Positions 6,947 to 30,143 are shown, counted from the first letter of the stretch. The stretch is DNA of 53,680 nt from Alphaproteobacteria bacterium (GCA_947458145.1 CANGYM010000001.1:1-53680); one strand, 5' to 3'. The notes: generated by a model not told the origin, from the letters alone. Translations and numbers: made by a program.

Positions 6947-8443
6947 ATGGTTGCTCGGGTACGAACCTCTAGTTTTTATGGCATGGATGTGCTGGACATT
7001 GACGTTCAGGTGCATTTGGCCAATGGGGTTCCTGGTTTTCAGATTGTGGGACTGGCGGATAAGGCGGTGGCGGAATCCCGCGAACGGGTACGCTCTGCCC
7101 TGCATGCCATTGGCATGGCCCTGCCCCCCAAACGAATCACTGTTAATTTATCACCGGCGGATGTCCCTAAGGAAGGCAATCACTTTGATTTGCCCATTGC
7201 TTTGGGTCTTTTGGTTGGCATGGGTGTCATTCCCCAGGGGGCCATTGATACCTATTATGCCATGGGCGAGCTGGCCTTGGACGGTCTCCTCACCCCCGTC
7301 AGTGGCATTTTGCCTGCTGCCGTCCATGCCAACGCGCAGGGATGCGGCCTGATTTGTCCTGAAGGCAACGGCAGCGAAGCGGCTTGGGCCGGCGAGCTGT
7401 CCATTTTGGCGCCGGATTCCTTGGTGGCCCTGACCAACCATATCCTGCAGCGCCAACGCCTCAGCCCCCCTCAACCTTTGGCCCAAGATGCCAGAAAACC
7501 CCGCGGGGATTGGCGCGACGTGCGGGGCCAAGAAAGTGCCAAACGGGTCATGGAAATTGCTGCCAGCGGGGGGCACAACGTTTTGCTTTCGGGGCCCCCG
7601 GGGGCGGGAAAATCCCTGCTGGCATCGCGCATGACCACCATTTTACCGCCGCTTTCCCCCGAAGAAGCCCTGGAAGTCAGCATGATCCACAGCATCGCCG
7701 GACAGCTGAAAGAAGGGATGCTGATTATGGAGCGCCCCTACCGTGACCCCCATCACTCGGCGTCCATTCCTGCCCTTGTAGGGGGTGGCATTCGCGCCAA
7801 GCCAGGGGAAATCTCGCTGGCCCACCAAGGCATTTTGTTTTTGGATGAGCTGCCGGAATTTCAGCGGGCGGCCCTTGATTCTTTGCGCCAGCCCCTAGAG
7901 ACCGGATACACCACCGTTTCGCGGGCCAACGCCCATGTGACCTATCCCGCCAACATTCAGTTGGTGGCGGCCATGAATCCCTGTCGCTGCGGCTATTTGA
8001 CGGATGTTGAGCGAGCCTGTTCCCGCGCACCGGCATGCGGAGAGGACTATACGCGCCGCCTTTCAGGTCCCCTGCTGGATCGTATTGATTTGCGTTTGGA
8101 TGTGGAACCCGTGAAGCCCTATGAACTCAGCCGCATTGCCGCGGGGGAAGACAGCGCCACCGTCCGCGCACGGGTCACGCGGGCGCGGGATGTGCAGCGC
8201 CAGCGCTATGCCCCCTATCAAAAAAAATTGAATGCTGACATTGACGGGGATTTGCTGTACGCGCAAACCGCTTTGGATGGCCCAACCGAAACCTTCCTGC
8301 AAAACGCAGCGGAAAAATTGCGCCTGTCGGCACGGGGTTACAACCGCGTTCTGCGCGTGGCCCGCACAATTGCGGATATGGCAGAATCCGAACGCATTGC
8401 CATGCCCCATTTGCAAGAGGCTCTGAGTTACCGACAAGGATAA
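6947..8443 (+). CDS. comM: YifB/ComM-family Mg-chelatase-like AAA+ protein
   Basis: MVARVRTSSFYGMDVLDIDVQV...IVGLADKAVAESRERVRSAL is a Lon-like N-domain. Walker A GPPGAGKS is present, with an MCM/Mg-chelatase-like C-terminus. The start is 6938 or 6947. Confidence 0.88.
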   Translation: MVARVRTSSFYGMDVLDIDVQVHLANGVPGFQIVGLADKAVAESRERVRSALHAIGMALPPKRITVNLSPADVPKEGNHFDLPIALGLLVGMGVIPQGAIDTYYAMGELALDGLLTPVSGILPAAVHANAQGCGLICPEGNGSEAAWAGELSILAPDSLVALTNHILQRQRLSPPQPLAQDARKPRGDWRDVRGQESAKRVMEIAASGGHNVLLSGPPGAGKSLLASRMTTILPPLSPEEALEVSMIHSIAGQLKEGMLIMERPYRDPHHSASIPALVGGGIRAKPGEISLAHQGILFLDELPEFQRAALDSLRQPLETGYTTVSRANAHVTYPANIQLVAAMNPCRCGYLTDVERACSRAPACGEDYTRRLSGPLLDRIDLRLDVEPVKPYELSRIAAGEDSATVRARVTRARDVQRQRYAPYQKKLNADIDGDLLYAQTALDGPTETFLQNAAEKLRLSARGYNRVLRVARTIADMAESERIAMPHLQEALSYRQG

Positions 8444-8446
8444 ACC

Positions 8447-9385
8447 TTAACCCCCTGGCTTTAACCGATCCGATGTCATGATCACTGCCGGTGGTCGTTG
8501 TTGCTTGCCCAACAACCACCGATCATGCAGCCATAGCCAATCCTGCGGCGTTTCGCGAATCCAGCTTTCCATTAATGTGGCCGCCCGCTGAATCAGATCC
8601 ACCCTGCGGTCCCGCCCCTGCAGATCAGGGTTGCCCACCATGGGCGGATATAACGTAATGCGATGATGGGCGGGCCCCAAACGTTCACACCGCGCCGGCA
8701 TCAAGGGCAGGTTATAACGTAAAGCCAGCTCAAACGGGGTAGAGGGAAATTTGGTCTGATGCCCCAAAAACATCACATCATCCCCGTGGCGTGTTTTTTG
8801 ATCAATCAAAAACCCTAGGTTTTCCCCCGCTTTAATACAGGCGACAACCTCCCGCGCGGTGCTCTTGGCCACAAAGCCCCCTGGAATTTGGCTGCGAATC
8901 CGCTGGATCAGGGTTTCTAAAAATGGATTGTTGGACGGTCGATAAAACCGACGAAACGGGGCGCCATAACGCGCCGCCACCGCCGCAAACAATTCCCAAT
9001 TCCCAAAATGCCCGCTGATAAACAAAACGGGGCCATGGCTGGCCACATAGTGAAAATGCTCTTCCCCCACAATCTCTAAATAGGAATCCGGCGTTTCCGG
9101 ATTGAAAAAAGCCTTCCCATGGGGAAATTCCCCCACAACCATACCCAGATTTTCCCAAACGCGACGGGCCATGTCCTGAGGGTTGTCACACTCTGGCAAA
9201 CCAAAAGCCAGATTCCGCAGCAACAGATCCTGCTTTCTGGTGTATGGCCCCAAAGTTTTGGCGATCCACCCCGTGATGCGGGCGGCACGCTGGGGGGACA
9301 ACACCCGCAATCCATAAAGCAAAGAGGCACAAACGCTGCCAAGGGCCGCCTGTAGGATCCGCTGTGCGGGAAGGACGCTGGCCAT
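8447..9385 (-). CDS. Lipid A late acyltransferase family protein (LpxL/HtrB/MsbB-like)
   Basis: The SGHFGNWE (HxxxxD/E-type) acyltransferase motif is present with overall family-like length. I chose the ATG at 9383-9385, 4 nt after the dut stop. The track start 9523 overlaps dut. Confidence 0.75.
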   Translation of the reverse strand: MASVLPAQRILQAALGSVCASLLYGLRVLSPQRAARITGWIAKTLGPYTRKQDLLLRNLAFGLPECDNPQDMARRVWENLGMVVGEFPHGKAFFNPETPDSYLEIVGEEHFHYVASHGPVLFISGHFGNWELFAAVAARYGAPFRRFYRPSNNPFLETLIQRIRSQIPGGFVAKSTAREVVACIKAGENLGFLIDQKTRHGDDVMFLGHQTKFPSTPFELALRYNLPLMPARCERLGPAHHRITLYPPMVGNPDLQGRDRRVDLIQRAATLMESWIRETPQDWLWLHDRWLLGKQQRPPAVIMTSDRLKPGG

Positions 9386-9389
9386 GCCC

Positions 9390-9842
9390 CTAATGCAAAC
9401 CCGTGGACCCAAAGCCACCCGCCCCACGTTCCGTGGGGGGTAAAGTGTCCGTCGGGGCAAAGGCCACCTGAACATAGGGGGCCACCACCATCTGGGCGAT
9501 CCGCATACCGCGGGTGATGACAAAGGGCTCCCCGCCCAAATTGATCAACATGATTTTGATTTCCCCCCGATAATCCGCATCAATGGTCCCAGGGCTGTTT
9601 AAACACGTGATGCCATGCTTTAACGCCAAGCCGGAGCGGGGACGAATCTGGGCCTCAAACCCCTCTGGCAGAGCCATAGCCAAACCTGTCGGGATCAGGG
9701 CGCGTTCCATAGGACGCAGAACAATCTCTTCCCCCTGTCCCACAGCTGCCAGCAAATCCACACCGGCACTATGCGGGGTTGCATACGCCGGCAAGGGCAA
9801 ATCCCGCGCGTGATCCAAAATCTGAAGGGGGATGGTGGTCAC
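9390..9842 (-). CDS. dut: dUTP diphosphatase
   Basis: The 150-aa product has [15 protein letters not shown] and [11 protein letters not shown] dUTPase motifs. Confidence 0.93.
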
Positions 9843-10416: not shown

Positions 10417-10896
10417 ATGACCGTTTCTTTTGAATCCCGCCGCAGCATAGAACAGGTTGAAGAAGGCCATGATTTGGCGCCGAAATTTGACGAACATGGC
10501 CTGATCCCTGTGGTGACCACATCTGCTGACACCGGCGAGGTGTTGATGCTGGGCTATATGAACGCCGAAGCTCTGCAAAAAACCATCGAAACAGGGCAGG
10601 CCCATTATTATAGCCGCAGCCGCAAAATCCTCTGGCATAAAGGCGCCAGCAGCGGCCTTTTGCAACATGTCACAGAAATGCGCATTGACGATGATCAAGA
10701 CGCTGTATGGCTTAGGGTCACCATCGGCGGTAATCTGGGGGAGGCCAGCTGCCACGTCGGTTACCGCAGCTGTTTTTACCGCAGCATTCCCCTAAAACCC
10801 CTTTCAGAAAAAGTCACTCTGACCTTTGAAGAAACAGAGAAAACCTTTGACCCCGTTGCCATTTACGGGGATGTTCCCAATCCCACCATTTTATAA
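10417..10896 (+). CDS. hisI: Phosphoribosyl-AMP cyclohydrolase, monofunctional
   Basis: GLIPVVTTSADTGEVLMLGYMNAEAL...YYSRSRKILWHKGASSG...DDDQDAVW...CHVGYRSCFY matches the HisI signature. Confidence 0.9.
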   Translation: MTVSFESRRSIEQVEEGHDLAPKFDEHGLIPVVTTSADTGEVLMLGYMNAEALQKTIETGQAHYYSRSRKILWHKGASSGLLQHVTEMRIDDDQDAVWLRVTIGGNLGEASCHVGYRSCFYRSIPLKPLSEKVTLTFEETEKTFDPVAIYGDVPNPTIL

Positions 10897-10907
10897 AGGC
10901 TGTCTGT

Positions 10908-12386
10908 ATGCCCCACCAAGGCCTGAACTTTGACGAACCTTTGCTGTTTGAATTGCCGCCGGAATCCTGCGGTGTTGACCTGCCCCACCCGCCTAAGGTG
11001 CAGGATCGTTTGGGGACCATGGCCCGCCTGAATCCCCCTGCCCTGCCCAATGTGTCAGAGCCGCGGGTGGTGAGGCACTTTACCCGTTTGTCCCAAAAAA
11101 ACTTTTCCATTGATTCTGGGTTTTATCCTTTGGGATCATGCACCATGAAGCATAATCCCCGACTAAACGAACAAACCGCCCGTTTGCCAGGGTTTTCCAA
11201 CATTCATCCTTTGCAAGACATAGAGACTGTTCCTGGCGCGGTGGCCCTGATGGGGGAATTGTCCGATTTCCTGAAAAATTTAACGGGGCTGGCGCATGTG
11301 GCCCTGTCCCCCGCGGCGGGGGCGCACGGGGAATTATGCGGAATGCTGACCATCCGCGCCGCCCTGCATCATCACGGCCATCACGAAAAAACCGTTGTTC
11401 TGGTCCCCGAATCCGCCCATGGCACAAATCCAGCAACCGCCGCGGCGTGTGGCTTTACCGTGCGCAACCTGCCCGCCAATGATGGGGGACGATTGGATTT
11501 GCAGGCGTTTTACAACGCCCTGAGCGATGACGTTGCGGCCATCATGCTGACCAACCCCAACACATGTGGGTTGTTTGAAGATGATATTATAAAAATGGCA
11601 GAGGCTCTGCATGCCAAGGGTGCCTATGTGTACTGCGATGGGGCCAACTTTAATGCCCTGGCAGGGGTGGTCCGCCCAGGGGATCTGGGTGTGGACGCCA
11701 TGCATATCAATCTGCACAAAACCTTCTCCACACCACACGGCGGAGGAGGACCTGGCAGCGGTCCCGTTGTGTTTTCCGAAGCGCTCGCCCCCTTTGTCCC
11801 CCTGCCTTGGGTTGTGGGCAATGCCACCGATGGGTATCGCATGCTGAGCACACCCACAGACGAAGCCGCCCATGCCACAGGACGAATCAAGGCATTCTGG
11901 GGACAGTTTGCCACGTTTGTCCGGGCCTTAACCTATATGAAAAGTTTTGGCACTGCGGGGATTGCGCAGGCCTCGAAAGATGCCGTTTTGAACGCCAATT
12001 ATATCCGATCAGGCCTTTCGGATGTTTTGCATCCTTCTTTTGATGGCCCGTGTATGCATGAGGTGTTGTTTGACGAATCCAGCCTGAAACCCCTGGGCCT
12101 GACCACCATGGACGCAGCTAAAGGATTGATCGATAAAGGCTTTCACCCCATGACGGTCTATTTCCCCTTGGTTGTGCAGGGGGCCATGCTGATTGAACCC
12201 ACAGAAAGCGAATCCCAGCAAACCTTGGATGACTTTATGGTTGCCGTGCGGGATGTTCTGGCCATGTCCCCAGAATCCCTGAAACATGCGCCTCAACACA
12301 CCCCACGGCGACGTCTGGACGAGGTTCGCGCCGCCCGAACCCCTGTTTTAACGGCCTCTCGCCGTTCGGCCCCTCAACACGTATAA
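10908..12386 (+). CDS. gcvPB: Glycine dehydrogenase (decarboxylating) subunit 2
   Basis: FYPLGSCTMKHNP, ...SAHGTNPA... and NLHKTFSTPHGGGGPG (PLP-lysine region) are typical of GcvPB. It starts 11 nt after hisI. Confidence 0.9.
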   Translation: MPHQGLNFDEPLLFELPPESCGVDLPHPPKVQDRLGTMARLNPPALPNVSEPRVVRHFTRLSQKNFSIDSGFYPLGSCTMKHNPRLNEQTARLPGFSNIHPLQDIETVPGAVALMGELSDFLKNLTGLAHVALSPAAGAHGELCGMLTIRAALHHHGHHEKTVVLVPESAHGTNPATAAACGFTVRNLPANDGGRLDLQAFYNALSDDVAAIMLTNPNTCGLFEDDIIKMAEALHAKGAYVYCDGANFNALAGVVRPGDLGVDAMHINLHKTFSTPHGGGGPGSGPVVFSEALAPFVPLPWVVGNATDGYRMLSTPTDEAAHATGRIKAFWGQFATFVRALTYMKSFGTAGIAQASKDAVLNANYIRSGLSDVLHPSFDGPCMHEVLFDESSLKPLGLTTMDAAKGLIDKGFHPMTVYFPLVVQGAMLIEPTESESQQTLDDFMVAVRDVLAMSPESLKHAPQHTPRRRLDEVRAARTPVLTASRRSAPQHV

Positions 12387-12464
12387 ACGTAACCGCCAGC
12401 GATCCCGCTTCAAAAGCCATGGGCATAAATCTCTTTTTAACCATCCCTGTGCCATAGCTAAGGA

Positions 12465-14489
12465 ATGAGGGATAACCGTGACCAGCTGCATGCCATTAAA
12501 AAAATTTCCCTGACCGAGGCCGTCACCTTTGGTCAAGGGGATACGGTGGACTTTACCAATCCTTTGCCACCGTTTTCTTTTGATCCGCATATCACCGCCT
12601 ACGCCACGCAGAAACACAACGAAATTGCCTATGTCATGGCGCCGCATATTGTGCCTCGGTTTTCCCTGATGGAGACACAAAACAAAATTGAGAATCCCCA
12701 TCTTCTTCAAGGGTATGCCGCCCATCCTATTCGGGTTCAAGAGACTCCCTACAGCCAAACCCTCATCATCGCCCAAAAACCTGGGGACATTTCTTTAACC
12801 TCACAAGAGGCTCGGAATTTTTTCCAAATTCACAAAAATGTGGCGGAATGGTTGATTAGGCCCATGGTTAAGATTTTGAGGGATTTTGAAGAGCTGAATT
12901 TAACCCATCGGGCTATCCATCCGGCACGCATCACCTTCGATGATTTTTCGTTTCAAAACCTAAACCTCGGATATGGTTTTTTGACACCCCCCGGTTTTTT
13001 ACAACCCGCTTGCTATGAACCTCTGCAAACCTGCTTTGCTGAACCCACAGCCCGTGGGGCAGGCCACCCAAGCTATGATTTGTATGCCTTGGGCGTCACC
13101 ATTCTCTCTTTGTTCAAAGATCCAAAATTTTTACAACCCCTTTCGTTTGCGGACATAAACAAAAGACGGCTCAGCGAAGGAAGCTATGCTTTTTTTCTTG
13201 AAAAACAAATGTTCTCCGAAAGAATTACCGAGCTTCTTAAGGGGCTTATTTGCGATGATCTGAGCCAACGCTGGACCCCTGATGATTTGGAATCTTGGGC
13301 TGATTTTAATAAAGTCCACGCGCGTTACCGCCCCCCACAAAAGAGCGCAACCAAACCTTTTGTATACCAAGGTCAAGAATACAACAGCCCTGCCTTGCTC
13401 ATTCACCAAATGGGCACAGACCACACTTGGGCCCAGGATGTTATTTTTTCTGAAGATTTCCGTGTTTGGATGCGTCGCAATGCCGGCCAACATGAAAACA
13501 CTGTTGGCATCGAAGACGCCAAGGCTTCTGCCTCTCGCACCGAAGCCAGTATACGGCAGGATGCTATTGTCTCTTATTGCCTTATGGCCTTGGATCCTGA
13601 GCGTCCTCTTTATTTTAAGGGCCTTGTCTTCACACCGGACGGGATTGGGGATCATTTGGCGGCCTACTTCTATGACACACAAAAGCGTTCTGATACTGCT
13701 GCTTTGCTCAGCAGCAAAGCCCCCTTGTTCTGGCTTTCTTTAAAAGAGCAAAAGTCCCCCCAGGTTCTGCGTTTTAACAAACTGTATCAAGAATCAGCCA
13801 ATTTTTTATCCAAACGCGGCATAGGATTTGGGATAGAGCGCTGCCTTTATGAACTCAATCCCCATGTCCCATGTCAGAGCCCCCTTTTGAATACAGTAGC
13901 GATGTATGATCGCACTGATATGCTGGAGGCTCTTAATCATTACGCCGCGCATAATCCGGGGCAACTTTCTGCGAAGCTTCCCATAGACCGTCATCTTATG
14001 GCTTATGCCGCCACACACTATGATTTTATTAAAGATGATTTTCTAAACGCCTTTCCCGATGAGAGGGCCCCCAAAGAACAAAAAATCATCGGATGCCTTC
14101 GTTTTCTTTCCTTAATTGAAAAAAACACCAATACTCAACCTTTAAAAGATCTGTATTATTGGGTGCATGATCTTAGTTTACAAAGCATCGGTATTTACCG
14201 ATCAAAAAAACGGCGTGACATGATCCAAAAATTGCTGGAATCTCAGCGCAACCCCTGTCTCATCGATCGTCTTTTGGATTGGATTGACAATACGGCTGAA
14301 AAAAAAGCGGACATGGATGAATTTATGGATGCCAAAAAGCATCATATTTATACGGTCCATAAAATCAAAGAGTGGCAGTTTAAACTGGACAATATCCGAA
14401 GCGTATCCCGTGATATTTGCGATAATTTTTCGATTTTGTTAGCGGCCTTGGGAAGCCTCTTTATGGCCGCCCTTTATCTTTTTGTTTAA
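12465..14489 (+). CDS. Tail-anchored protein-kinase-like protein (predicted pseudokinase), 674 aa, no named family recognised
   Basis: The kinase-fold C-lobe is recognisable: LIRPMVKILRDFEELNLTHRAIHPARITF (HRD loop degenerated to HRA...R), SYDLYALGVTILSLF (subdomain IX) and DDLSQRWTPDDL (subdomain XI). There is no GxGxxG, VAIK or DFG. The extreme C-terminus FSILLAALGSLFMAALYLFV is a single TM helix. The coding sequence is AT-rich. Confidence 0.6.
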   Translation: MRDNRDQLHAIKKISLTEAVTFGQGDTVDFTNPLPPFSFDPHITAYATQKHNEIAYVMAPHIVPRFSLMETQNKIENPHLLQGYAAHPIRVQETPYSQTLIIAQKPGDISLTSQEARNFFQIHKNVAEWLIRPMVKILRDFEELNLTHRAIHPARITFDDFSFQNLNLGYGFLTPPGFLQPACYEPLQTCFAEPTARGAGHPSYDLYALGVTILSLFKDPKFLQPLSFADINKRRLSEGSYAFFLEKQMFSERITELLKGLICDDLSQRWTPDDLESWADFNKVHARYRPPQKSATKPFVYQGQEYNSPALLIHQMGTDHTWAQDVIFSEDFRVWMRRNAGQHENTVGIEDAKASASRTEASIRQDAIVSYCLMALDPERPLYFKGLVFTPDGIGDHLAAYFYDTQKRSDTAALLSSKAPLFWLSLKEQKSPQVLRFNKLYQESANFLSKRGIGFGIERCLYELNPHVPCQSPLLNTVAMYDRTDMLEALNHYAAHNPGQLSAKLPIDRHLMAYAATHYDFIKDDFLNAFPDERAPKEQKIIGCLRFLSLIEKNTNTQPLKDLYYWVHDLSLQSIGIYRSKKRRDMIQKLLESQRNPCLIDRLLDWIDNTAEKKADMDEFMDAKKHHIYTVHKIKEWQFKLDNIRSVSRDICDNFSILLAALGSLFMAALYLFV

Positions 14490-14506
14490 GCAAGGTTGAA
14501 TTCTTT

Positions 14507-14977
14507 ATGTCAAAAGCGAAAACACCGCGTAAAGCGCCCAACTATAAAAAACGAAACCTCATCGTCAAAATTTTGTTTTTTATAGTTGTTTTGATCATTG
14601 GCGGTATTTCTTTTGGGGCCTTTATCATGACACTTTTTGGGGCTCTGCCGACTTTTGCAGCTTGGTATCGCGATAACAACCCGAGAAAATCCCTAGGCTA
14701 CACCGTTGGTTTAACCAACACCACCTGCATTTTTCTGGTCATTAAAGATCTCTTGCCCATGGGACAGCATTTGACGCAGGCTATGCCTTATTTACAAAAC
14801 CCTTGGTATTGGTGCATGATTTATATAGGGGCCGTCGTTGGCTATGGTATCCACAACATGACCCCCAAGATTGTCATCAAAACATTGCGCTGGAATTTTC
14901 AGGGAAAAATTCAGGAACTCAAACGAACCCAACATCAGCTGGTGCAGCAATGGGGGCCGGATGTGGTGGGGGAGTAA
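14507..14977 (+). CDS. Small polytopic membrane protein (about 3-4 TM), unknown family
   Basis: The N-terminus is basic (KTPRKAPNYKKR). Hydrophobic segments follow: ILFFIVVLIIGGISFGAFIMTLFGALPTFAAW, VGLTNTTCIFLVI and WYWCMIYIGAVVGYGI. It starts 17 nt after the previous gene. Confidence 0.55.
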   Translation: MSKAKTPRKAPNYKKRNLIVKILFFIVVLIIGGISFGAFIMTLFGALPTFAAWYRDNNPRKSLGYTVGLTNTTCIFLVIKDLLPMGQHLTQAMPYLQNPWYWCMIYIGAVVGYGIHNMTPKIVIKTLRWNFQGKIQELKRTQHQLVQQWGPDVVGE

Positions 14978-14980
14978 AAA

Positions 14981-15916
14981 ATGGTCAACATGACCCGTAT
15001 CGCTATTCTTCTGCCGTGCTACAACGAAGCGCCAACCATTGACGGTGTGGTTAGTGAATTGCGATCTGTTATGCCTGAGGCAAGCGTTTACGTATATGAC
15101 AACAATTCTCGTGATAACACCGCAGATCTTGCAAAAAAAGCAGGGGCCATTGTTCGATCTGAGAAACGCCAAGGCAAAGGCTATGTGGTGCGGCGTATGT
15201 TTTCGGACATTGAAGCTGATGTTTATGTGATGCTAGATGGGGATGCAACATACAATGTTCATGACCTTCCTAAAATGGTGGCCCTGTTAACCGACGGTTT
15301 TTATGATATGGTGGTTGGCTGCCGTGTGGCCCAAAATAAACTATCTTATCGACAAGGGCATAGCACAGGAAACAAGGTTTTCAATGCTTTGCTGAAAATT
15401 TTTTTTAACAGCCCCTTCACGGATATTTTTTCGGGCTATCGGGTCTTTTCACGTCGGTTTGTAAAATCGTTTGTACAAAACAGCAAAAAATTTGAAATTG
15501 AAACCGATCTCAGTTTGCATGCCCTTGAGCTTAGCATGCCTGTCGCTGAAATCCCCACCCCTTACTATAAACGCCCCGAAGGTTCATTTAGTAAACTAAA
15601 CACCTACAAAGACGGGCTGCGTATTTTACGGCGCATCATCATCCTCCTTAAAGATGTTCGCCCTCTGCTGTTTTACAGCGGCTTTTCGTTTCTTTTTTTG
15701 GTGGGATCCCTATTCATAGGGGTTCCTGTGATTTTAGATTTTTTCCAAACCGGCCTTGTTGAGCGTTTACCTTCGGCAATTTTGGCTGCGTCTTTGATGA
15801 TTCTGTCCCTGCTGAGTTTAACAGCAGGGTTAATTTTGGACAGTGTCGCGAAAATGAGACGAGATGCCAAAAAATTAACCTATCTCAGCATACCCCATCA
15901 GGCTGACACCCCCTGA
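14981..15916 (+). CDS. GT2 polyprenyl-phosphate glycosyltransferase (GtrB/ArnC/DPM1-like) with two C-terminal TM helices
   Basis: IAILLPCYNEAPTI, YDNNSRDNT and the LDGDATY (DxD) GT-A motifs are present. The C-terminal helices are LLFYSGFSFLFLVGSLFIGVPVIL and AILAASLMILSLLSLTAGLIL. A GGGGAG Shine-Dalgarno lies upstream, and the gene starts 3 nt after the previous stop. Confidence 0.8.
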   Translation: MVNMTRIAILLPCYNEAPTIDGVVSELRSVMPEASVYVYDNNSRDNTADLAKKAGAIVRSEKRQGKGYVVRRMFSDIEADVYVMLDGDATYNVHDLPKMVALLTDGFYDMVVGCRVAQNKLSYRQGHSTGNKVFNALLKIFFNSPFTDIFSGYRVFSRRFVKSFVQNSKKFEIETDLSLHALELSMPVAEIPTPYYKRPEGSFSKLNTYKDGLRILRRIIILLKDVRPLLFYSGFSFLFLVGSLFIGVPVILDFFQTGLVERLPSAILAASLMILSLLSLTAGLILDSVAKMRRDAKKLTYLSIPHQADTP

Positions 15917-17709
15917 ATCATCTGCGTATCCACCAAATCGCGGTACAAAGGGCACCGTTCATACAAATCGGCGTGACGTCCGCTGTCCACAATGCGTCCT
16001 TGGTCGATGACCAGAATGCGATCCATGGTTTGAACGGTGGCCAAACGGTGGGCGGCAATCAGAACCGTTTTGTCTTTCCAGTCGGTGCTCAGGATGCTGA
16101 GAAAATGGGCCTCGGATAAACCGTCTAGGGACGATGTGGGCTCGTCAAGCAGGACAATATCGGCATCTTTAAGAATGGCGCGGGACAAATTGATTTTTTG
16201 TTTTTGACCACCCGAAAGATGCAGCCCCCGAGGGCCCACAGGCATCGCAAGCCCTTCTTTATGAGACACAATAAACGGCGTTAGCTGTACATGATCCGCC
16301 GTTTTTTTCAGTGTTTCCACCGAACATGACTCAGACAACGTCATATTGTCTTGCAAACTGGCGGACATCAGAAAGGAATCCTGGGGGACATAGGCAACCG
16401 CGCGGCGCAAATCATGAACCGCCAGATCCTCGATGGGCACCCCAGCCAACGTTATCTGGCCCGATTGGGGGGCATAAAAACGCAATAACAAATCAAACAG
16501 GGATGTTTTGCCCGACCCCGACAGGCCCACCAGGGCCACATGCTCCCCCGCGTTTAAGGTCAGGGAAATCCCCTGCAAAATGGGACGATCTGGGAATTTG
16601 GGATAGGCCAAAACAACATCCGAAAACACAACCGGTACCGCCGGATGGGGCAAAGGTGTGGGCGAAGGACGATCCACAAGCGCCGGCGGGGCGTCCCGCA
16701 AATAAAACAACCGCTCGGCGGCAGCGGCGGCCTTTTGCAGCTCGCCCCCAATATCACTAAAGGCATTCAGGGATCCGGCCAGCACCAGCGCATAAAACAA
16801 AAACGCTGACAAATCCCCTGTGCTCAGGCTTCCCCTCTGCACCTGCATGGCCCCAATCCACAAAACGCCCACCACAGACACCAGAACAATCAGAATAATC
16901 AGGGATGTCATTACACTGCGCCGCGCGTTGCGCTTCACCGCCTGGGCGAACAGGGTTTGAATCAGCCCTTGATACCGATCATAAAGGGCGACTTCTTGGG
17001 TATAGGCCTGAAGGGTTTTCAGACCATGCAAAGATTCCTCAACAAAATCCGTACAATCCGCATGACATTGCTGCACCGTGCGGCTTTGATCCCGAATACG
17101 GGGGCCAAAAACGGCCAAAACCCCAAAAATCAGGGGCACCATCAACACAATAATCAGGGCCAACTGCACACTGGTGATAAACAAAAAAACAAATCCCCCC
17201 ACCACCATAATGCCGTTACGTACCGCGATGGGGATGACGGTGCCCACCACCGTTTGCAGCAGGGTAAGATCATTGCTCAGGCGGGATAATGTCTGTCCCA
17301 CCGAAAGGTTTTCAAAAAACGGGGGGGACTGACGCAAAAGGTTTTTCACCACATCCGCCCGCAGGCCCAAAACAAACGCCTCCCCCAACCAAGACACCCC
17401 GTAGGCGCGAAGAAAACTGGCCGCCGCCAAGGCAATCACCAAGGCCATCAGGCCCAAACTGGCCGGCAGCATGGAAACACCGGCCGCGGCATGAAGTCCC
17501 TTGTCCACAAAATGACGCAGCCCCTGACCCAACAAGAGCACAATAGCCGATGTGACAATGACGGCCACCGTGGCCAGAACAAAACGGCCGCGATGGGGAC
17601 GAAGATACGGCCAGACCTGAGAAAAAAAAGACGAGAGCTTGGCTTTGGCTTGGCTCACAACAGGGCCTTTGATTGGCGGGAAAACAGCCTTTTGAGACAA
17701 AGCCTTCAA
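15898..17709 (-). CDS. Fused TMD-NBD ABC exporter (MsbA/ATM1-like)
   Basis: A six-helix N-terminal domain is followed by Walker A GLSGSGKTS, signature LSGGQKQK and Walker B IVLLDEPTSSLD. The track start is a TTG 3 nt after the rpmB stop, so the true start is uncertain. The 3' end overlaps the convergent GT2 gene by 19 nt. Confidence 0.85.
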   Translation of the reverse strand: MKALSQKAVFPPIKGPVVSQAKAKLSSFFSQVWPYLRPHRGRFVLATVAVIVTSAIVLLLGQGLRHFVDKGLHAAAGVSMLPASLGLMALVIALAAASFLRAYGVSWLGEAFVLGLRADVVKNLLRQSPPFFENLSVGQTLSRLSNDLTLLQTVVGTVIPIAVRNGIMVVGGFVFLFITSVQLALIIVLMVPLIFGVLAVFGPRIRDQSRTVQQCHADCTDFVEESLHGLKTLQAYTQEVALYDRYQGLIQTLFAQAVKRNARRSVMTSLIILIVLVSVVGVLWIGAMQVQRGSLSTGDLSAFLFYALVLAGSLNAFSDIGGELQKAAAAAERLFYLRDAPPALVDRPSPTPLPHPAVPVVFSDVVLAYPKFPDRPILQGISLTLNAGEHVALVGLSGSGKTSLFDLLLRFYAPQSGQITLAGVPIEDLAVHDLRRAVAYVPQDSFLMSASLQDNMTLSESCSVETLKKTADHVQLTPFIVSHKEGLAMPVGPRGLHLSGGQKQKINLSRAILKDADIVLLDEPTSSLDGLSEAHFLSILSTDWKDKTVLIAAHRLATVQTMDRILVIDQGRIVDSGRHADLYERCPLYRDLVDTQMIQGVSA

Positions 17710-17712
17710 AAG

Positions 17713-18003
17713 TTAGCTTTGGGGAGATTCAGCTTTTAACAATTCGGCGCGAAGGGTTTTAAAACGATCCGACAAAACAGACGGGCTGGCTTTTTTCAAA
17801 TAGGCATCAAGACCGCCCACTTTATCCAACGTCCGCAGGGCGTGTGTTGACAGACGCACGGACAGGGAACGCTTTAACCCCTCAATCCGCAGGACTTTCG
17901 TCACCAAGTTGGGCAGAAACACGCGCTTGGTTTTGTTGTTGGCGTGACTGACATTGTTACCCACCAAAGAGCGTTTTCCGGTTAATTCGCAAACCCGTGA
18001 CAT
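17713..18003 (-). CDS. rpmB: 50S ribosomal protein L28
   Basis: [33 protein letters not shown] is the canonical L28 N-terminus. Confidence 0.95.
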
Positions 18004-18098
18004 GATAGGACACCCTTAAAAAAAATTCCAAAGAGGACCGTTTATAGGGGATTTTTTTTCACAATTCAAATGAAAAATCATGCGCCCCCTTTTGGGCC

Positions 18099-18341
18099 TC
18101 AGAGATTTGGCGTGCCCAAACGTCCCTCCAGCGCCATCATGCGTTTTTCTAGGGCCGAGAGACGATCCAAAATTTCTTTTAACGCACCCTCCGCCCCAGA
18201 TACAGAGGCGGAGCTGGGGGTCTGAGACGCCGTCCATGTGCGCATCACGGTTTGCCAAAACAGCGTCATATCGGCCGTCGCCTGCTGGGTTTCCGGCTGG
18301 CTGCGCCATTGTTCGGTATAGGCCTGCATCATGGCCATCAT
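18099..18341 (-). CDS. Hypothetical small protein with a C-terminal leucine-zipper-like helix
   Basis: MMAMMQAYTEQW...ALKEILDRLSALEKRMMALEGRLG. Three frames are open here, so coding status is uncertain. Choosing the internal ATG (18341) avoids overlap with the upstream GT2 gene, whereas the track start 18374 overlaps it. Confidence 0.35.
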   Translation of the reverse strand: MMAMMQAYTEQWRSQPETQQATADMTLFWQTVMRTWTASQTPSSASVSGAEGALKEILDRLSALEKRMMALEGRLGTPNL

Positions 18342-18345
18342 CTCT

Positions 18346-19128
18346 TCAAGTGGGTTTTTTGGGGGGGGCTGCATGATTTTGATCCTTCAGCTCTTGATAT
18401 TTGATATACGACAATAACGGAAACAGACCGGCGCACAGGGCGATACACAGCCCATAAACCCCTTCCTTGTACCCCTGACGTTTGACATAACAGTGAAAAA
18501 AACGGGAAAACAAACGCCGGATGTTGGGCCAAAGGCGGGTCCAATGGGGCGTATCGCCCATATCCAGGGCCTTGGCCGCGCTGTAACGGTTCAAGCGGGC
18601 GATCATGTCGGTGATGTTATCATCCACAAAATGATCAATACCGTGGGATAGGCGGGGACCCGCCAACCCCTGATAGGTCACCTGAGGATGCACCCGCTGA
18701 TCGTGCCAGTGTTTGGTGCCCTTTTGAAACAGACACCATTTGTTGCGAATCCCAAAGGATGCCCCCCAACCCTGTTTCACCAAGCGGGATCCAATATAAT
18801 TGTTGATGGGCACCAAATACCGCTGGGCTGTGGGGTTTTTTAACAGGGCCATAACCTCTTGGGCCATGGCGGGGGTCACGTGTTCATCGGCATCCACCTC
18901 CAAAATCCATGGCCCCTGACAGGCATCGATGCCTGCGTGACGGCGGGGCCCTTCACGGTCCCACGCGCCCTCGATCAATCGGGGGGTAAAGCGGGCGGCG
19001 ATGTCACGGCTGGCATCGGTGCAACGATCCAGCACCACCACAATTTCATCACAAAACCCCAAACGCGATAAACACGCGGCCAAGCGGGATTCTTCGTTAT
19101 GGGCAACAACCAAGGCAGACAGAAACAT
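18346..19128 (-). CDS. GT2 glycosyltransferase, LPS-core type (WaaE/KdtX-like)
   Basis: MFLSALVVAHNEESRL...IVVVLDRCTDAS...LEVDADEH (DxD) identifies the GT-A fold. The start is the ATG at 19126-19128, or alternatively 19167. Confidence 0.8.
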   Translation of the reverse strand: MFLSALVVAHNEESRLAACLSRLGFCDEIVVVLDRCTDASRDIAARFTPRLIEGAWDREGPRRHAGIDACQGPWILEVDADEHVTPAMAQEVMALLKNPTAQRYLVPINNYIGSRLVKQGWGASFGIRNKWCLFQKGTKHWHDQRVHPQVTYQGLAGPRLSHGIDHFVDDNITDMIARLNRYSAAKALDMGDTPHWTRLWPNIRRLFSRFFHCYVKRQGYKEGVYGLCIALCAGLFPLLSYIKYQELKDQNHAAPPKKPT

Positions 19129-19243
19129 AACGGGATCATTAACGCAGAAAGGGGCAGGATACACCAAACCCAGAAAGGGGGGTAGGAAAAAAAGAAAGAT
19201 ATTTTTATGTTAGAGCTTTGTAAAATAGGAGATTCCTATAAAA

Positions 19244-19925: not shown

Positions 19926-21908
19926 ATGCATACTTTTGCAGACACTCAGGGCTTCGTCAATGTTTTGCTGCCCATGGTGCTGGATCGGCCCCTGACCTAT
20001 ACCACGTCACAGGATGTCTCGGTGGGGCAGTATGTCCGTGTTCCTTTTCGCAATCGGTCCTTAACCGGCATTGTGTGGGAAACGGATGTACCGCATCCCG
20101 CCCTGAAAACCCTGAAGCCCCTGCTGAAAATCCATGATTTTCCGCCGTTATCCCCAGATTTTATCGCGTTTTTAACATGGTGCGCGGATTATACCGTCAG
20201 CAGTATGGGGAAAATCCTGAAACTGGCCCTGCCGCTGCAGGATGCCTTTCAGGACACCCCCAGCAAGCAAACCTTTGCCCCGCCTCAGGTGGCGCATCGC
20301 TCTGTGGTGTTTGATGATGCCCAAAAAGTCGCCCTGACAAAACTGTTGTCGCTCACCACAGAGCATCCGGACAAAGTGGCCCTGCTGGACGGGGAAACGG
20401 GATCGGGAAAAACAGAGGTGTATCTGGACATTGTGGCCGCCGCGCTGGCACGGGGACAGCAAGCCCTGATCATGCTGCCGGAAATTGCCCTGTCCACCCA
20501 GATGCTGCGCCGGTTTTCGGATCGCTTCGGCGCGGAGCCCGCCCTGTGGCATTCCCATTTAACCCCCGCCAAGCGCCGCGACACGTGGCGGGCCATTGTG
20601 ACGGGACAGGCGCCCTTGGTGCTGGGGGCGCGATCGGCCCTGTTTTTGCCCTATCCCAATTTGGGCGTGATGGTGGTGGATGAGGAACACGAAAGCGCCT
20701 ATAAACAAGACGACGGCGTTTTATACCACGCCCGCGATATGGCGGTGGCGCGGGGGCACAGGGAAAATGTGCCTGTGGTTTTGGTATCCGCCACACCGTC
20801 GCTGGAAACGTGGCACCATGTGGAACGGGGCAAATATCACGGGGTGCGCTTAACCAGCCGGTATCAGGCCACGCTGCCCGACATCACGCTGGTGGATATG
20901 CGGGGCAGGCCCGCATCCCAAGGATGGCTGCATGAAACGGTGATTGATGAAACCCGTCAAACCCTATCCCAAAACAAACAGGCCCTGTTTTTTATGAACC
21001 GGCGGGGTTACGCCCCGATGACATTATGCCGCGGGTGCGGCCACCGCTGGCGATGCCGCGATTGTTCGTCGTATTTATCGGCCCACAAGGCCATCGGCGT
21101 TTTGCAATGTCATCATTGTGGGTATAAACAGCCCATGCCGGAAACCTGCCCCGCCTGCGGCGCGGGGGAAGATGCCCTGATTCCCTGCGGCCCGGGCGTT
21201 GAGCGCATTGCCGAGGAACTGGCCACGCACTTCCCCAACCAAGAGATCGCCATTGTGTCCAGCGATGTGCTGAGCACCCCCAAAAAAATGCACGAAACGG
21301 TACAGCGCATCACACAGGGTGAGGTATCCCTGATCGTGGGCACCCAAATGATCGGCAAGGGCTATCATTTTCCCGATTTGACGTTGGTGAATGTGGTGGA
21401 CGGCGATATGGGCCTGTCGGGGGGGGATTTTCGGGCGGGGGAAAAAACGTGGCAGATGCTGCACCAAATTGCCGGACGGTCCGGACGTGGGCAGCACGCG
21501 GGAAAAGTGCTGATTCAGACCTTTGTGCCGGATCATCTGTTGATGCAAACCCTGCAGCGCCATGATCGCGAAGGCTTTTATCGCGCCCTGATCAAAGAAC
21601 GCACGTTGGGCCACTGGCCCCCGTTTACCCGTCTGGCGGCGTTGATTGTGTCAGGACGGGCGCTGGTTCGGGTGGATGCGGCCTGCCGCACGTTGCTGGG
21701 GAGTGCCCCCAAAACCGATGCGTTTGAGGTTCTGGGCCCCGCCCCTGCCCCGCTGTCGCCGCTGCGCGGGGAACACCGTATGCGATTTCTGGTGCGCTGC
21801 GCCCCGCAAAAACGCCTGTCGGCCTATATGAAAACATGGCTGTCGGCCACCCCCCTGCCCCCCGATGTTCAGGTTCAGGTGGATATGGATCCGGTGTCGT
21901 TTGTGTAA
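19926..21908 (+). CDS. priA: Primosomal protein N' (replication restart helicase PriA)
   Basis: Walker [18 protein letters not shown], and the Cys-rich zinc region [17 protein letters not shown]...CHHCGY...CPACG are present. An AGGA lies 4-5 nt before the ATG at 19926. Earlier in-frame ATGs at 19896 and 19914 would overlap or abut the tal start. Confidence 0.9.
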
Positions 21909-21940: not shown

Positions 21941-22411
21941 TTAGCCGTTTGTATTTCCTTGCCATTGAAGAAATCCTAGGGCTACAGACCCAGAAGACTG
22001 AACAGGTTGGGTGTTGTTTTTTGGTGAATCAGGGCAAAGGACATAAACGGCCCTTTCCATAAAAGACAACACTTTTGGTATATCATGTGATCCGATTGGG
22101 GATAGCAATGCGGGACCCTTTGCATCTCCCTGTGAAGCAACAACTGTTCCTGTTTTGTCAAAGCCCACAGAAAATTTGTTCATCCTGTCGTGATAACGAA
22201 CAGAACTTTGGCCATTAAGAAAGCTGTCACCGTCTGAACATGACCCCCCATGGCGCGTAATTTCACCGTGAATGTCCCTCAGACGCTGGGAATTGGAAAC
22301 ATTCTCCTCGTGCCTAGGATCCTTAAAATATTGTCCCCCCCCCCCCCACACAGCCAACACAGCAGCAACACCAGCAACACCAGCCATCAATTGGCTTCTA
22401 GAAATCCCCAT
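21941..22411 (-). CDS. Secreted hypothetical protein, paralogue A (156 aa), carrying the poly-G tract
   Basis: It has a signal-peptide-like N-terminus MGISRSQLMAGVAGVAAVLAVW and two Cys (SCSDGD, VLCPDS). It shares the 5' control region and motif order with 22517-23086. The coding sequence is AT-rich. Confidence 0.6.
   Translation of the reverse strand: MGISRSQLMAGVAGVAAVLAVWGGGGQYFKDPRHEENVSNSQRLRDIHGEITRHGGSCSDGDSFLNGQSSVRYHDRMNKFSVGFDKTGTVVASQGDAKGPALLSPIGSHDIPKVLSFMERAVYVLCPDSPKNNTQPVQSSGSVALGFLQWQGNTNG
22335..22347. repeat. Homopolymeric tract C13 (G13 on the coding strand) within codons 22-26 of the 21941-22411 gene
   Basis: Direct count gives ttgt + 13 c + aca. The coding strand reads TGG GGG GGG GGG GGA (W G G G G). 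Confidence 0.95.
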
Positions 22412-22516: not shown

Positions 22517-23086
22517 TTACATTTGAAATGTAGGTGGTGCCAAAAGTTGCACAATCACAGGGTAAGAAGGTTCTTCCGATTTTGGCTTACAGGCTTTACT
22601 AACAGCCTCTTCCATGCCGCTCAAAAGTGCCTGATGTGTTTTGGTTGCATGTAAAGAAATATATGGCAATACAACCGTAGGAAGGGGTACTCCTTCCGAA
22701 AGTGGCTCTTCCTGCCCTTGGGGAGTAACCGCATAAGTGGGTATAATAGACACACTCCCATTTCTTAGTAACATAGCCTCAGTTTGAAGGGATAAGTTAT
22801 AGACTGGTGAAACAGGACCAACTGTGCTGGGGCCTTGCCATAAAGTTAGTATTTTTTTTTCGACAACACCGCCTGTTTCATCTGTAGAGACGGTAGTATT
22901 TCCATTTGAACAACGATATTCTGAAGGGCCCTTGATCCTACTCCCGTTTGTACGAATTGTTTGCTCCAACGCCCGAACCCGCTCTGCATCAGTCAAACCC
23001 TGCTGGGCCCCCACAGGCCCCGCCTGAACCAACACACAAGCCGCTGCTGCCGTCGCAACACTCAAGAATCTGTTGAACAACCCCAT
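22517..23086 (-). CDS. Secreted hypothetical protein, paralogue B (189 aa)
   Basis: It has the signal peptide MGLFNRFLSVATAAAACVLVQAGPVGAQQ and two Cys (YRCSNGN, KACKPKS) in the same order as paralogue A. A shared C-terminal motif reads LLSGMEEAVSKAC here and VLSFMERAVYVLC in A. I chose the ATG at 23084-23086, because the track start 23206 includes the upstream operator. Confidence 0.6.
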   Translation of the reverse strand: MGLFNRFLSVATAAAACVLVQAGPVGAQQGLTDAERVRALEQTIRTNGSRIKGPSEYRCSNGNTTVSTDETGGVVEKKILTLWQGPSTVGPVSPVYNLSLQTEAMLLRNGSVSIIPTYAVTPQGQEEPLSEGVPLPTVVLPYISLHATKTHQALLSGMEEAVSKACKPKSEEPSYPVIVQLLAPPTFQM

Positions 23087-23145
23087 ACCCCACCCCCATT
23101 GAAAAACATTATTCCCCCACCATACGGGCATTGTTGGAAAAAATC

Positions 23146-23161
23146 TGTGACGGATGTCACG
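23146..23161. promoter_or_regulatory. TGTGA-N6-TCACG near-palindrome, copy 2
   Basis: The same 16-mer lies 60-75 nt upstream of the ATG at 23086 and 56-71 nt upstream of the divergent dnaB start. Confidence 0.5.
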
Positions 23162-23216
23162 GAATGGGGTTATGCTGAAAAGATAATCGCGCTTCCCCCA
23201 TGACAATGGTTCCAGA

Positions 23217-28141: not shown

Positions 28142-28698
28142 CGGTGTCTTCGGTGGCCTTTAGACTGCTTGGGGTATTGTTTTTGGTGACCCTGTTTTGG
28201 GTGGCTTTGGGGTTGTGGCACCGCGCCCCGCCCCCTTCTCCGGCAGCTTTATGGCTTTCCGGTCCCGAAGCCACCGTTTTGATGCAGACATTGGGGAAAA
28301 ATTTTAAAAAAAATCCAGCCATAGGGGATGATCCTGTTGCCAAAGATTTCTTTTTTCCACCTGTTCGGGGGGAAAAAGATGGATTTTGGGACGGTCTGGG
28401 GATTCTTTATCCCATAGAGCCCCTGCAGCCCATTTATGCCCCCGCGGGTGGACAGGTTTTGTTTAACCGCTCTTTGGCCGATGTTGGCCATGTTTTTATG
28501 ATTCGCCATGACGATCAACGTATCAGCGTCATCACCGGCATGGCGCAGCCGGCATTTCAAGAGGGCGATATCGTTAAAGCCAATCAAATCTTGGGTATCC
28601 CCGCAACACACACCAAAACCGTGTTTTACATGCTTCGCAATCAGGGCAAGGCCGTTGACCCACGCAAAATGTTTGATACAGTAGATTCGCCTTTGTGA
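28138..28698 (+). CDS. Membrane-anchored degenerate LytM (peptidase M23-like) domain protein, EnvC/NlpD-like
   Basis: An N-terminal TM (LLGVLFLVTLFWVALGLW) precedes an M23-like beta-core: IYAPAGGQVLF...VFMIRHDDQRISVITGM...GDIVKANQILG. The HxxxD and HxH metal ligands are not present. The start overlaps the bioA stop (ATGA). Confidence 0.6.
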   Translation: MTVSSVAFRLLGVLFLVTLFWVALGLWHRAPPPSPAALWLSGPEATVLMQTLGKNFKKNPAIGDDPVAKDFFFPPVRGEKDGFWDGLGILYPIEPLQPIYAPAGGQVLFNRSLADVGHVFMIRHDDQRISVITGMAQPAFQEGDIVKANQILGIPATHTKTVFYMLRNQGKAVDPRKMFDTVDSPL

Positions 28699-28734
28699 TA
28701 CAAGGCTGATTTGACTCTTTTGGGACCCTTTTTC

Positions 28735-30132: not shown

Positions 30133-30143
30133 GAAAGCACCCC

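Follow-up and report, generated by a model that had tools for sequence, protein, structure and literature searches.

A widespread pseudokinase and its small membrane partner beside an exchangeable glycosyltransferase gene in an alphaproteobacterium

Why should a kinase-like protein, a small membrane protein, and a glycosyltransferase be encoded side by side in a bacterium, and which of the three belong together? This question is raised by positions 12,465 to 15,916 of a 53,680-nucleotide stretch of DNA from an Alphaproteobacteria bacterium (GCA_947458145.1 CANGYM010000001.1:1-53680), a stretch referred to below as the window. Three genes are tightly packed in this block. They encode a 674-aa pseudokinase (PK), a 156-aa small membrane partner (SM), and a 311-aa glycosyltransferase (GT2a). 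The best explanation for the data described below is that the block is a composite, in which an old PK–SM pair has been joined by a lineage-specific, exchangeable synthase of polyprenyl-phosphate sugars. We assign a probability of roughly 0.6 to this explanation, including a role for PK as a scaffold in a complex with SM that we infer from the findings presented here.

A kinase fold that has lost its catalytic residues

The kinase ancestry of PK is hardly visible when the protein is examined by itself, since the sequence matches the Pfam kinase model PF00069 with an E value of only 0.17. The relationship becomes evident at the level of the family. A total of 238 homologues of ∼660–740 aa can be aligned with PK from end to end, and the source annotations of many of them name a Ser/Thr kinase, from Rhodospirillales or allied groups. 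A profile made from 45 members matches MAPKAPK3 and MAPKAPK2 in the PDB with an E value of ∼2e-11 (1.8e-11) over profile positions 55–295. Moreover, the AlphaFold model of PK (pLDDT 88, pTM 0.83), when submitted as a whole to Foldseek, yields only kinases, which crowd out any other match; the top matches have a probability of 1.00 and include the JH2 pseudokinase domain of TYK2. A Hanks-type kinase fold in PK is detectable, therefore, both by the family profile and by the modelled structure.

The positions that are critical for catalysis were tallied in an alignment of 189 distinct family members. Every sequence is accounted for at the HRD and DFG sites, and 179 of the 189 at the beta3 site. 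The position of the beta3 Lys is occupied by C, L, M, S, A, or G in those 179 sequences, and neither Lys nor Asp is among these six commonest residues. Where the HRD Asp would be expected, family members carry A, N, S, E, G, or R, and at the position of the DFG Asp they carry V, A, M, I, Q, or L; Asp is present at neither site in any sequence. A Hanks-type Ser/Thr kinase needs the beta3 Lys together with the Asp residues of HRD and DFG to be competent in catalysis, and this set was not found among the 189 sequences. Since all three residues are lost across this alignment, the PK family is a pseudokinase family throughout.

The catalytic loop of the family conforms to H-R-[A/N/S/G]-I-R-P-x-N, and an acidic residue at position 170 (LG[D/E]C), which comes after the Gly of the DFG site, is kept in 172 of the 189 sequences. 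The protein of the window reads ...YVMA... at beta3, HRAIHPAR in the catalytic loop, and NLG at the DFG site. Members of its clade additionally lack the catalytic-loop Asn (N155 is replaced by Arg) as well as the acidic residue at position 170.

The sharpest conservation in the family, and most of its invariant polar residues, are located in the helical C-terminal domain. This domain of ∼350 aa is situated between the kinase fold and the membrane anchor, and is modelled with a pLDDT of 91.5 when it is treated apart from the rest of the protein. Foldseek identifies no fold neighbor for it in the PDB (best E value 1.7), and no Pfam or NCBIfam family extends over it, the matches being below threshold and confined to short stretches. 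Residues G454, G456, E458, R459, L461, Y462, S472, D508, and D616 are invariant over the 189 sequences, and C470 and H510 are nearly so (97–99%). Together, these residues make up a polar cluster that can be written as G454-x-G456-x-E458-R459-x-L461-Y462-E, C470, S472, D508-R-H510, and D616.

Beyond this domain, hydropathy analysis reveals one hydrophobic helix (residues 654–674) at the extreme C terminus, with nothing following it. This hydrophobic stretch is kept across the family alignment. An earlier reading of the window made from sequence only had described the 674-aa protein as a catalytically dead, tail-anchored protein with a kinase fold. The profile and Foldseek matches, the residue counts, and the hydropathy data bear out this description.

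The family is large and uniform in its architecture. An exhaustive search of 1.84 billion representatives with a hidden Markov model (HMM) yielded 1,292 PK clusters (50% identity) at E<=1e-30. The best 150 of these matches are 614–788 aa in length, match the whole profile, and end at the C terminus, with no fusions among them. The typical size is ∼660–790 aa, and the PK of the window is a diverged member.

The conserved polar cluster permits a different explanation, in which PK is an active enzyme with noncanonical chemistry and SM is its membrane receptor. The activity could come from a repurposed kinase fold, as in SelO and SidJ, or from a new enzyme formed by the C-terminal domain. The invariant constellation of Glu, Arg, Tyr, Ser, Cys, Asp, and His residues in that domain speaks for this explanation, as does retention of the acidic residue at position 170 in most sequences. 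Precedents for the repurposing of kinase folds, namely SelO and SidJ, are on record in a review (PMC12599244). In contrast, the family has no conserved Lys or Asp at the nucleotide site, and the C-terminal domain matches no enzyme structurally. The clade of the window has also lost both N155 and the acidic residue 170, and yet its PK genes are still under purifying selection. Given these observations, we consider this alternative to be very doubtful.

Pseudokinases of bacteria have recently been compiled in a 2025 atlas of bacterial Ser/Thr kinases (STKs), which names the families GLW, ActPs1-3, CP1, DYD, and DLHK (PMC12599244; bioRxiv 10.1101/2025.01.12.632604). Other membrane pseudokinases include EssB of type VII secretion and the pseudokinase domain of mycobacterial MviN/MurJ, and in MviN a flippase for lipid-linked glycans is joined to a pseudokinase (PMC12599244; bioRxiv 10.1101/2025.01.12.632604). 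As with these membrane-anchored Hanks-type pseudokinases, the VAIK, HRD, and DFG motifs of the kinase fold are degraded in PK, which presumably has a noncatalytic role as a scaffold or switch. Unlike the seven named families, as far as their text descriptions permit a distinction, PK carries neither the GLW motif that replaces HRD in one of them nor a poly-Leu beta3 strand. Several features set PK apart from the known membrane pseudokinases. It carries the ∼350-aa helical domain between the kinase domain and the anchor, it has no periplasmic part, a separate small partner gene is located directly downstream in nearly all loci, and its distribution is centered on alphaproteobacteria of the Rhodospirillales type. 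No description of the PK family or of its SM partner was found in the literature searched.

Linkage of the pseudokinase to a small membrane protein

The genes that accompany PK were examined in 86 loci, 80 of which were obtained by scanning a single genome for each species (361 species matched) and six from contig look-ups. After removal of two near-duplicates and two contigs that end at the PK gene, 82 loci could be evaluated by searching their open reading frames (ORFs) with iterated profiles. An SM homologue is encoded directly downstream from PK and on the same strand in 80 of these 82 loci, and the median distance between the two genes is 11 nt. In one of the two exceptions, a Rhodospirillaceae metagenome-assembled genome (locus L044), the PK gene is followed by a RadC/JAB fragment and a 431-aa phage-type integrase (8087–9590), which suggests that a mobile element has been inserted after the PK gene. 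In the other (L059), the gene downstream from PK lies on the opposite strand and encodes a 250-aa polytopic membrane protein.

The pair is also widely distributed, with carriers in no fewer than 361 species among the alphaproteobacteria of Rhodospirillales type. The window itself comes from an uncultured freshwater alphaproteobacterium. Other carriers include Magnetospirillum, Phaeospirillum, Rhodospira, Rhodocista, Thalassospira-type bacteria, and SAR116, as well as Terasakiella and members of the Kiloniellales, Dongiaceae, Stellaceae, and Azospirillaceae. Approximately half of the examined loci have the arrangement serA-hisZ-purA-PK-SM, followed by a convergent gene for an rpoH-like sigma factor and a gene for an rluD-like pseudouridine synthase. 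The usual setting of the pair consists of housekeeping genes, with no glycosyltransferase nearby, and this neighborhood carries no information on function. The PK–SM pair looks like an ancient two-gene unit that has been inherited mostly vertically in Rhodospirillales-type alphaproteobacteria.

These data speak to an earlier proposal for the block, in which the kinase-like protein was said to take the place of a polytopic GT-C transferase. Because the pair occurs without a GT2 gene outside the clade of the window, PK does not stand in the position of a GT-C protein. Its conserved partner is SM, and the GT2 gene came later to an older pair.

A function in anti-phage defense, or a toxin–antitoxin-like system in which PK is a kinase-like sensor, might also be proposed for a two-gene unit of this kind. 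PK does give a match to the MADS6 kinase domain in NCBIfam (E 2.5e-4) and another to the kinase-like part of PD-T4-6 in PADLOC (E 1e-3, 16 bits). Both are below threshold (the MADS6 score is 19.7 bits, where 460 would be required), and both represent generic similarity between kinase folds. There is no significant match to a defense protein, and PADLOC yields no matches for SM and GT2a. Furthermore, the pair has a syntenic place next to purA in roughly half of the examined loci and is present in hundreds of species, unlike what is seen for defense islands. We give almost no credence to a defense function.

SM is a small protein with a basic N terminus and hydrophobic segments at approximately residues 18–53, 64–82, and 101–120. 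Judged from hydropathy and the charges of its loops, SM may cross the membrane four times in an N-in/C-in orientation, which would leave both ends in the cytoplasm. In the family alignment, P48, N71, G112, P120, and W149 are invariant, and a conserved C-terminal helix ends in ...EEWG (W149-G150). The protein is homologous to the small ORFs that directly follow PK homologues in distant genomes (BLASTP E ∼1e-13). No relatives of SM were found in Pfam, NCBIfam, or PADLOC, and a profile search of the PDB gave nothing below an E value of 0.16. Likewise, none of 38 SM family members matches any Pfam family.

An exchangeable glycosyltransferase slot in one lineage

GT2a belongs to a known class of enzymes. 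It matches PF00535 with an E value of 9e-20, and matches the AglJ-type model TIGR04182 over its full length with 199 bits. Among proteins of known structure, it is closest in sequence to Dol-P-Man synthase (5mlz; 1.8e-8) and ArnC. The protein carries a DxD motif (DGD, within LDGDATY), and hydropathy places two transmembrane (TM) helices at residues 228–260 and 262–290. On these grounds, GT2a is a polyprenyl-phosphate glycosyltransferase of the DPM1/ArnC/GtrB/AglJ class, the class that provides lipid-linked sugar donors, which agrees with its previous designation as a GtrB/ArnC-like GT2 protein with two C-terminal TM helices. It shares C-terminal membrane helices with its best relatives, Dol-P-Man synthase (5mlz), ArnC (9hwj, 9bhc, 8vxh), and AglJ (TIGR04182). 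The score obtained with the AglJ model is below the equivalog cut-off of 325 bits, and since GT2a falls under every NCBIfam equivalog cut-off, it is not assigned to a particular sugar and lipid at that level. GT2a adds an unexceptional member to an established class. GT2 proteins of equal length (311 aa) from Bradyrhizobium and other bacteria are 55–60% identical to it from end to end.

Among the examined loci, a GT2 gene directly downstream from SM is found only in the clade of the window (L004/L005 and L007–L012). This clade comprises six species-level relatives, whose PK proteins are 76%–95% identical to that of the window, and a sister lineage with identities of 58% for PK, 55% for SM, and 71% for GT2. 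The three genes recur in the six relatives and, in another chromosomal context, in the sister lineage. The site occupied in the window can be described as hisI-gcvPB, then PK-SM and a variable slot, then msbA-rpmB. It is the same in all five relatives whose contigs reach a flank, and both flanks are seen in four of them. In the sister lineage, the three genes are located between topA and a gene of the auxin-efflux family, and purA no longer adjoins PK. Elsewhere in the sister lineage (L090, 4921–5651), a PF08780 gene forms a toxin–antitoxin-like nucleotidyltransferase/substrate-binding pair with PF01909/PF18765. It is located between thrS and the 3′ end of a convergent purA gene, the position at which most Rhodospirillales carry PK and SM.

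The content of the slot is not constant. GT2a is present in the window, in L007, and in the sister lineage. In four other relatives (L008, L009, L010, and L012) the slot is occupied by galE and by a different, longer GT2 gene (GT2b). A score of 405 bits identifies the product of the slot galE as a true GalE, and GT2b, like GT2a, falls into the AglJ/DPM class. The remaining relative, L011, has a hybrid slot that contains galE, a 66-codon fragment of GT2b, a duplicated copy of the SM 3′ end (∼75 nt, 24 codons), and then GT2a. The fragments occupy positions 9447–9684 of that locus, between galE and GT2a, and the final junction matches the SM–GT2a junction of the window. These fragments are scars left when homologous recombination replaced one cassette with another, and the SM 3′ end provided one of the anchors.

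A similar arrangement is familiar from O-antigen and capsule loci, where alternative cassettes are exchanged between conserved flanks. Here the flanks are the SM 3′ end and msbA, and the scars in L011 add to the likeness. Unlike O-antigen and capsule cassettes, the slot holds only one or two genes, and these would serve only the step that produces the lipid-linked donor. Surface-glycan diversification would be expected to produce such a pattern of exchange.

The sequence-only reading had likened the last two genes of the block to a gtrA/gtrB-type pair. The assignment of the GT2 class holds, but SM is not a GtrA protein as judged by its sequence. PF04138 (GtrA) does not match the SM of the window at E<=1, nor any of 38 family members at E<=0.01. 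When the family profile was compared by hhalign with a true GtrA (L089), the probability was 0.2%, although this comparison with a single template has low sensitivity. The resemblance to the GtrA/GtrB/Gtr(type) clusters for O-antigen glucosylation is that GT2a is of the GtrB class and that a small polytopic protein is encoded directly upstream of it. In contrast to these clusters, SM shows no homology with GtrA, its partner is PK, and the window has no GT-C-type protein. Indeed, the three-gene combination of GtrA, GtrB, and a polytopic GT-C was not found within the window. The polytopic proteins of the window that were scanned with Pfam are Kup, an MFS protein, the MsbA-like exporter, and a GT2 protein, with no GtrA or GT-C-like protein among them. 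Elsewhere in the window (28138–31661), an M23 peptidase, a CtpA-like S41 peptidase, and a 505-aa membrane GT2 protein (Glyco_tranf_2_3) are encoded in the same orientation and form an envelope-related cluster.

Orthologues of GT2a in other genomes have partners that are missing here. In three of five unrelated contexts (L089, L094, and L095), large polytopic proteins with 7–10 predicted helices and no Pfam family are encoded alongside the orthologue, and true GtrA genes (PF04138) are also adjacent in two of these three. The large polytopic neighbors are GT-C candidates. The same three loci encode 501–628-aa proteins with 5–10 predicted TM helices and no Pfam family (L089, 3686–6918 and 11628–13253; L094, 2976–4862; L095, 31–4943), which are clustered with GtrA and the GT2a orthologue and may represent GT-C-type transferases that have not been classified.

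These comparisons bear on the possibility that the three genes form an integrated envelope-glycosylation module. GT2a would make a polyprenyl-phosphate sugar, SM would flip it as an analogue of GtrA, and PK would regulate this step or take the place of the missing GT-C partner. Such a module would account for the tight spacing of the genes, with no terminator-like site at the intergenic junctions, and for the maintenance of all three in two chromosomal contexts. All slot variants encode synthases of polyprenyl-phosphate sugars, and glycan genes are located beside the pair in its two nearest outgroup loci. SM has the small size and the polytopic character of GtrA proteins, along with the N-in/C-in topology suggested above, and GT2a orthologues elsewhere adjoin GtrA and large polytopic proteins, neither of which is present in the window. 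On the other hand, homology between SM and GtrA is not detectable, and SM goes with PK rather than with GT2 in more than 70 loci of housekeeping context. In addition, the GT2 gene is exchanged while PK and SM remain, and a periplasmic GT-C reaction is impossible for a cytoplasmic kinase fold. We regard the integrated module as unlikely, and as the less likely reading because the pair is widely distributed without any GT2 gene.

Under the composite explanation that we favor, PK and SM would form an inner-membrane complex in which PK is cytoplasmic and is held in place by its C-terminal helix. The dead kinase domain might act as a scaffold or as a conformational switch, and the C-terminal domain could carry the actual binding or catalytic activity. 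The PK and SM genes of the window would be this lineage's fast-evolving copy of the ancient two-gene unit. A GT2 gene would have been appended to the PK–SM operon in the lineage of the window, and homologous recombination among relatives swaps the contents of the slot between SM and msbA. The GT2a enzyme itself is likely to make a lipid-linked hexose on the cytoplasmic face for later decoration of a periplasmic glycan.

Several observations weigh against this explanation. The loci that establish the linkage are the best-scoring 80 of 361 hits, which is a nonrandom sample, and their ORFs were called mechanically. Throughout the clade, the slot encodes a synthase of polyprenyl-phosphate sugars, which is one of two different enzymes, and the three genes stay joined in a second chromosomal context (L004). 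The constancy of the synthase slot and the joined genes suggest a functional connection with the pair, which is underrated when the GT2 gene is viewed as an add-on. Glycan genes also adjoin the pair in the two nearest outgroup loci (L001 and L006). Finally, the invariant polar cluster could mean that PK is an enzyme rather than a scaffold.

Organization and origin of the block

The coordinates of the three genes and their parts are collected in Table 1. The ORF coordinates reproduce exactly the gaps that had been read from the sequence, which are 17 nt between PK and SM and 3 nt between SM and GT2a, as well as the 19-nt overlap of the exporter gene with the GT2a gene. The location of the block between gcvPB (upstream of PK, Pfam GcvP2_C) and a convergent MsbA-like exporter (TIGR02204) is likewise upheld. 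The operon-like appearance of the block stands as well, given its tight gaps and the failure to find a terminator-like site at either the PK–SM or the SM–GT2a junction. Shine–Dalgarno-like motifs precede the start codons of PK and GT2a, and a weaker AAGG precedes that of SM. The exporter gene is a flank of normal GC content and forms the right border of the variable slot, with 87%–98% identity in the relatives.

Table 1. Positions in the window of the pseudokinase block, of domains and segments within its genes, and of the gene on its right
Feature	Positions	Strand	Description and evidence
PK gene	12465..14489	+	674 aa; ORF call, 238 homologues, AlphaFold model, dN/dS
PK kinase-fold domain	12486..13334	+	∼residues 8–290; approximate limits taken from secondary structure of model
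PK all-helical C-terminal domain	13335..14390	+	∼residues 291–642; own model, no PDB neighbor
PK C-terminal TM tail anchor	14424..14486	+	residues 654–674; hydropathy, long terminal helices of model, alignment
SM gene	14507..14977	+	156 aa; follows PK in 80/82 evaluable distinct loci
SM gene 3′ end, left anchor for cassette exchange	14903..14977	+	∼75-nt copy repeated in L011
GT2a gene	14981..15916	+	311 aa; GT-A domain and two C-terminal TM helices
MsbA-related ABC exporter gene, convergent	15898..17709	-	603 aa; TIGR02204 E 1.7e-169; GC 0.543; outside module

Purifying selection acts on all three genes when they are compared with those of the relatives. The ratios of nonsynonymous to synonymous substitution rates (dN/dS) are 0.07–0.12 for PK, 0.12–0.23 for SM, and 0.10–0.12 for GT2a, and therefore all three are functional genes. 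A potential regulatory element was also considered near the 5′ end of the SM gene, where positions 14539–14588 form an 18-bp inverted repeat (94% complementary; RNA fold −16.4 kcal/mol, z −5.8). This candidate was dropped, as its outer stem is not kept in L007, L011, L009, and L004. The hairpin is probably a by-product of runs of Lys and Phe codons.

The base composition of the block differs from that of its surroundings. Its GC content is 45.0%, versus 52.9% for the rest of the window, which makes it the lowest 3.45-kb segment of the window and places it ∼5 standard deviations (sd) under the mean (windows of the same size outside the block: mean 52.8%, sd 1.5, minimum 50.1). At third codon positions, the GC fraction (GC3) is 0.46 for PK, 0.52 for SM, and 0.45 for GT2a, versus 0.56–0.68 for most other genes of the window. 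Counts made previously on single 60-nt lines were reproduced (48.3%, 25.0%, and 41.7% within 14041–14220, and 61.7% at 20401–20460), and the difference from the flanks persists when GC content is computed in windows. A second patch of low GC content (GC 0.47, GC3 0.40) is made up of two adjoining genes on the minus strand that encode proteins of 156 aa (21941–22411) and 229 aa (22517–23206). The genes of this patch have the lowest GC3 in the window, and their products have one predicted TM helix each and match no Pfam family.

The deviation is shared by the relatives. The GC content of the PK–SM pair is 7–11 points under that of its flanks in all six close relatives, versus a family-wide median difference of −1.4, and in the sister lineage the genome has ∼40% GC and the three genes have 37%. 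Conservation is also reduced. PK and SM are 74%–88% identical to their counterparts in L007–L012, versus 87%–99% for the flanking hisI, gcvPB, msbA, and rpmB genes (window 10417–19167). In L008, for example, PK and SM are 85% and 88% identical, versus 95%–98% for their neighbors.

One reading of these numbers is that the block is a recently gained horizontal island, perhaps from a relative of lower GC content, and that its composition reflects this foreign origin. Besides the deviation of ∼5 sd from the window and the excess over the family median in the close relatives, this reading accommodates the reduced conservation of PK and SM relative to the flanks (76%–85% versus 87%–96%) and the departure of the pair from its ancestral position at purA; the sister lineage could represent the type of donor. 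However, the block has no integrase and no flanking direct repeats, the window contains no tRNA genes, and the 3′ end of the block overlaps msbA. The five relatives whose contigs reach a flank have a single insertion site in common, and the family overall looks vertically inherited. Samples of the sister lineage that carry the three genes also carry a threonyl-tRNA synthetase (ThrRS) 78% identical to that of the window, which itself is ∼63% identical to the ThrRS of Rhodospirillaceae, its nearest named relatives. The fall from 78% for ThrRS to 58% for PK between the window and the sister lineage agrees with the generally fast evolution of the family, the mean pairwise identity of PK being 36% among the other 38 aligned members. 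Horizontal acquisition had been suggested on the basis of composition; the compositional deviation is real, but hallmarks of mobility or a patchy presence in close relatives were not seen. We consider a recent island to be unlikely. The GC deviation and the low conservation could result from acquisition from a relative of low GC content, or equally from rapid change with an AT bias in a native block.

The PK–SM pair is apparently undescribed, old, and widespread, and its novelty lies in the additional domain without a fold match in the PDB and in the dedicated membrane partner. A more ambitious idea is that the pair is an undescribed inner-membrane machine, confined to alphaproteobacteria of the Rhodospirillales type (spirillum group), that acts on polyprenyl-phosphate-linked envelope precursors. 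The C-terminal domain of PK would then represent a novel enzyme or a lipid-carrier-binding module, and SM would resemble a transporter or flippase. This idea is speculative and, in our estimation, quite improbable. If true, it would explain why interchangeable synthases of polyprenyl-phosphate sugars are found right behind the pair, and PK–SM would be a Gram-negative counterpart of the connection between MurJ (MviN) and a pseudokinase.

Bacterial pseudokinases are only now being catalogued, and a function is known for almost none of them. The PK family is large and uniform, with an adjacent partner and a confidently modelled domain, and hence offers a well-defined target in the tractable bacteria Magnetospirillum, Azospirillum, and Rhodospirillum. 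The lineage of the window serves as a natural experiment, in which the pair has moved, has sped up in its evolution, has lost more of its kinase residues, and has become coupled to swappable sugar-lipid synthases. This coupling may point to the envelope as the field of action of the pair.

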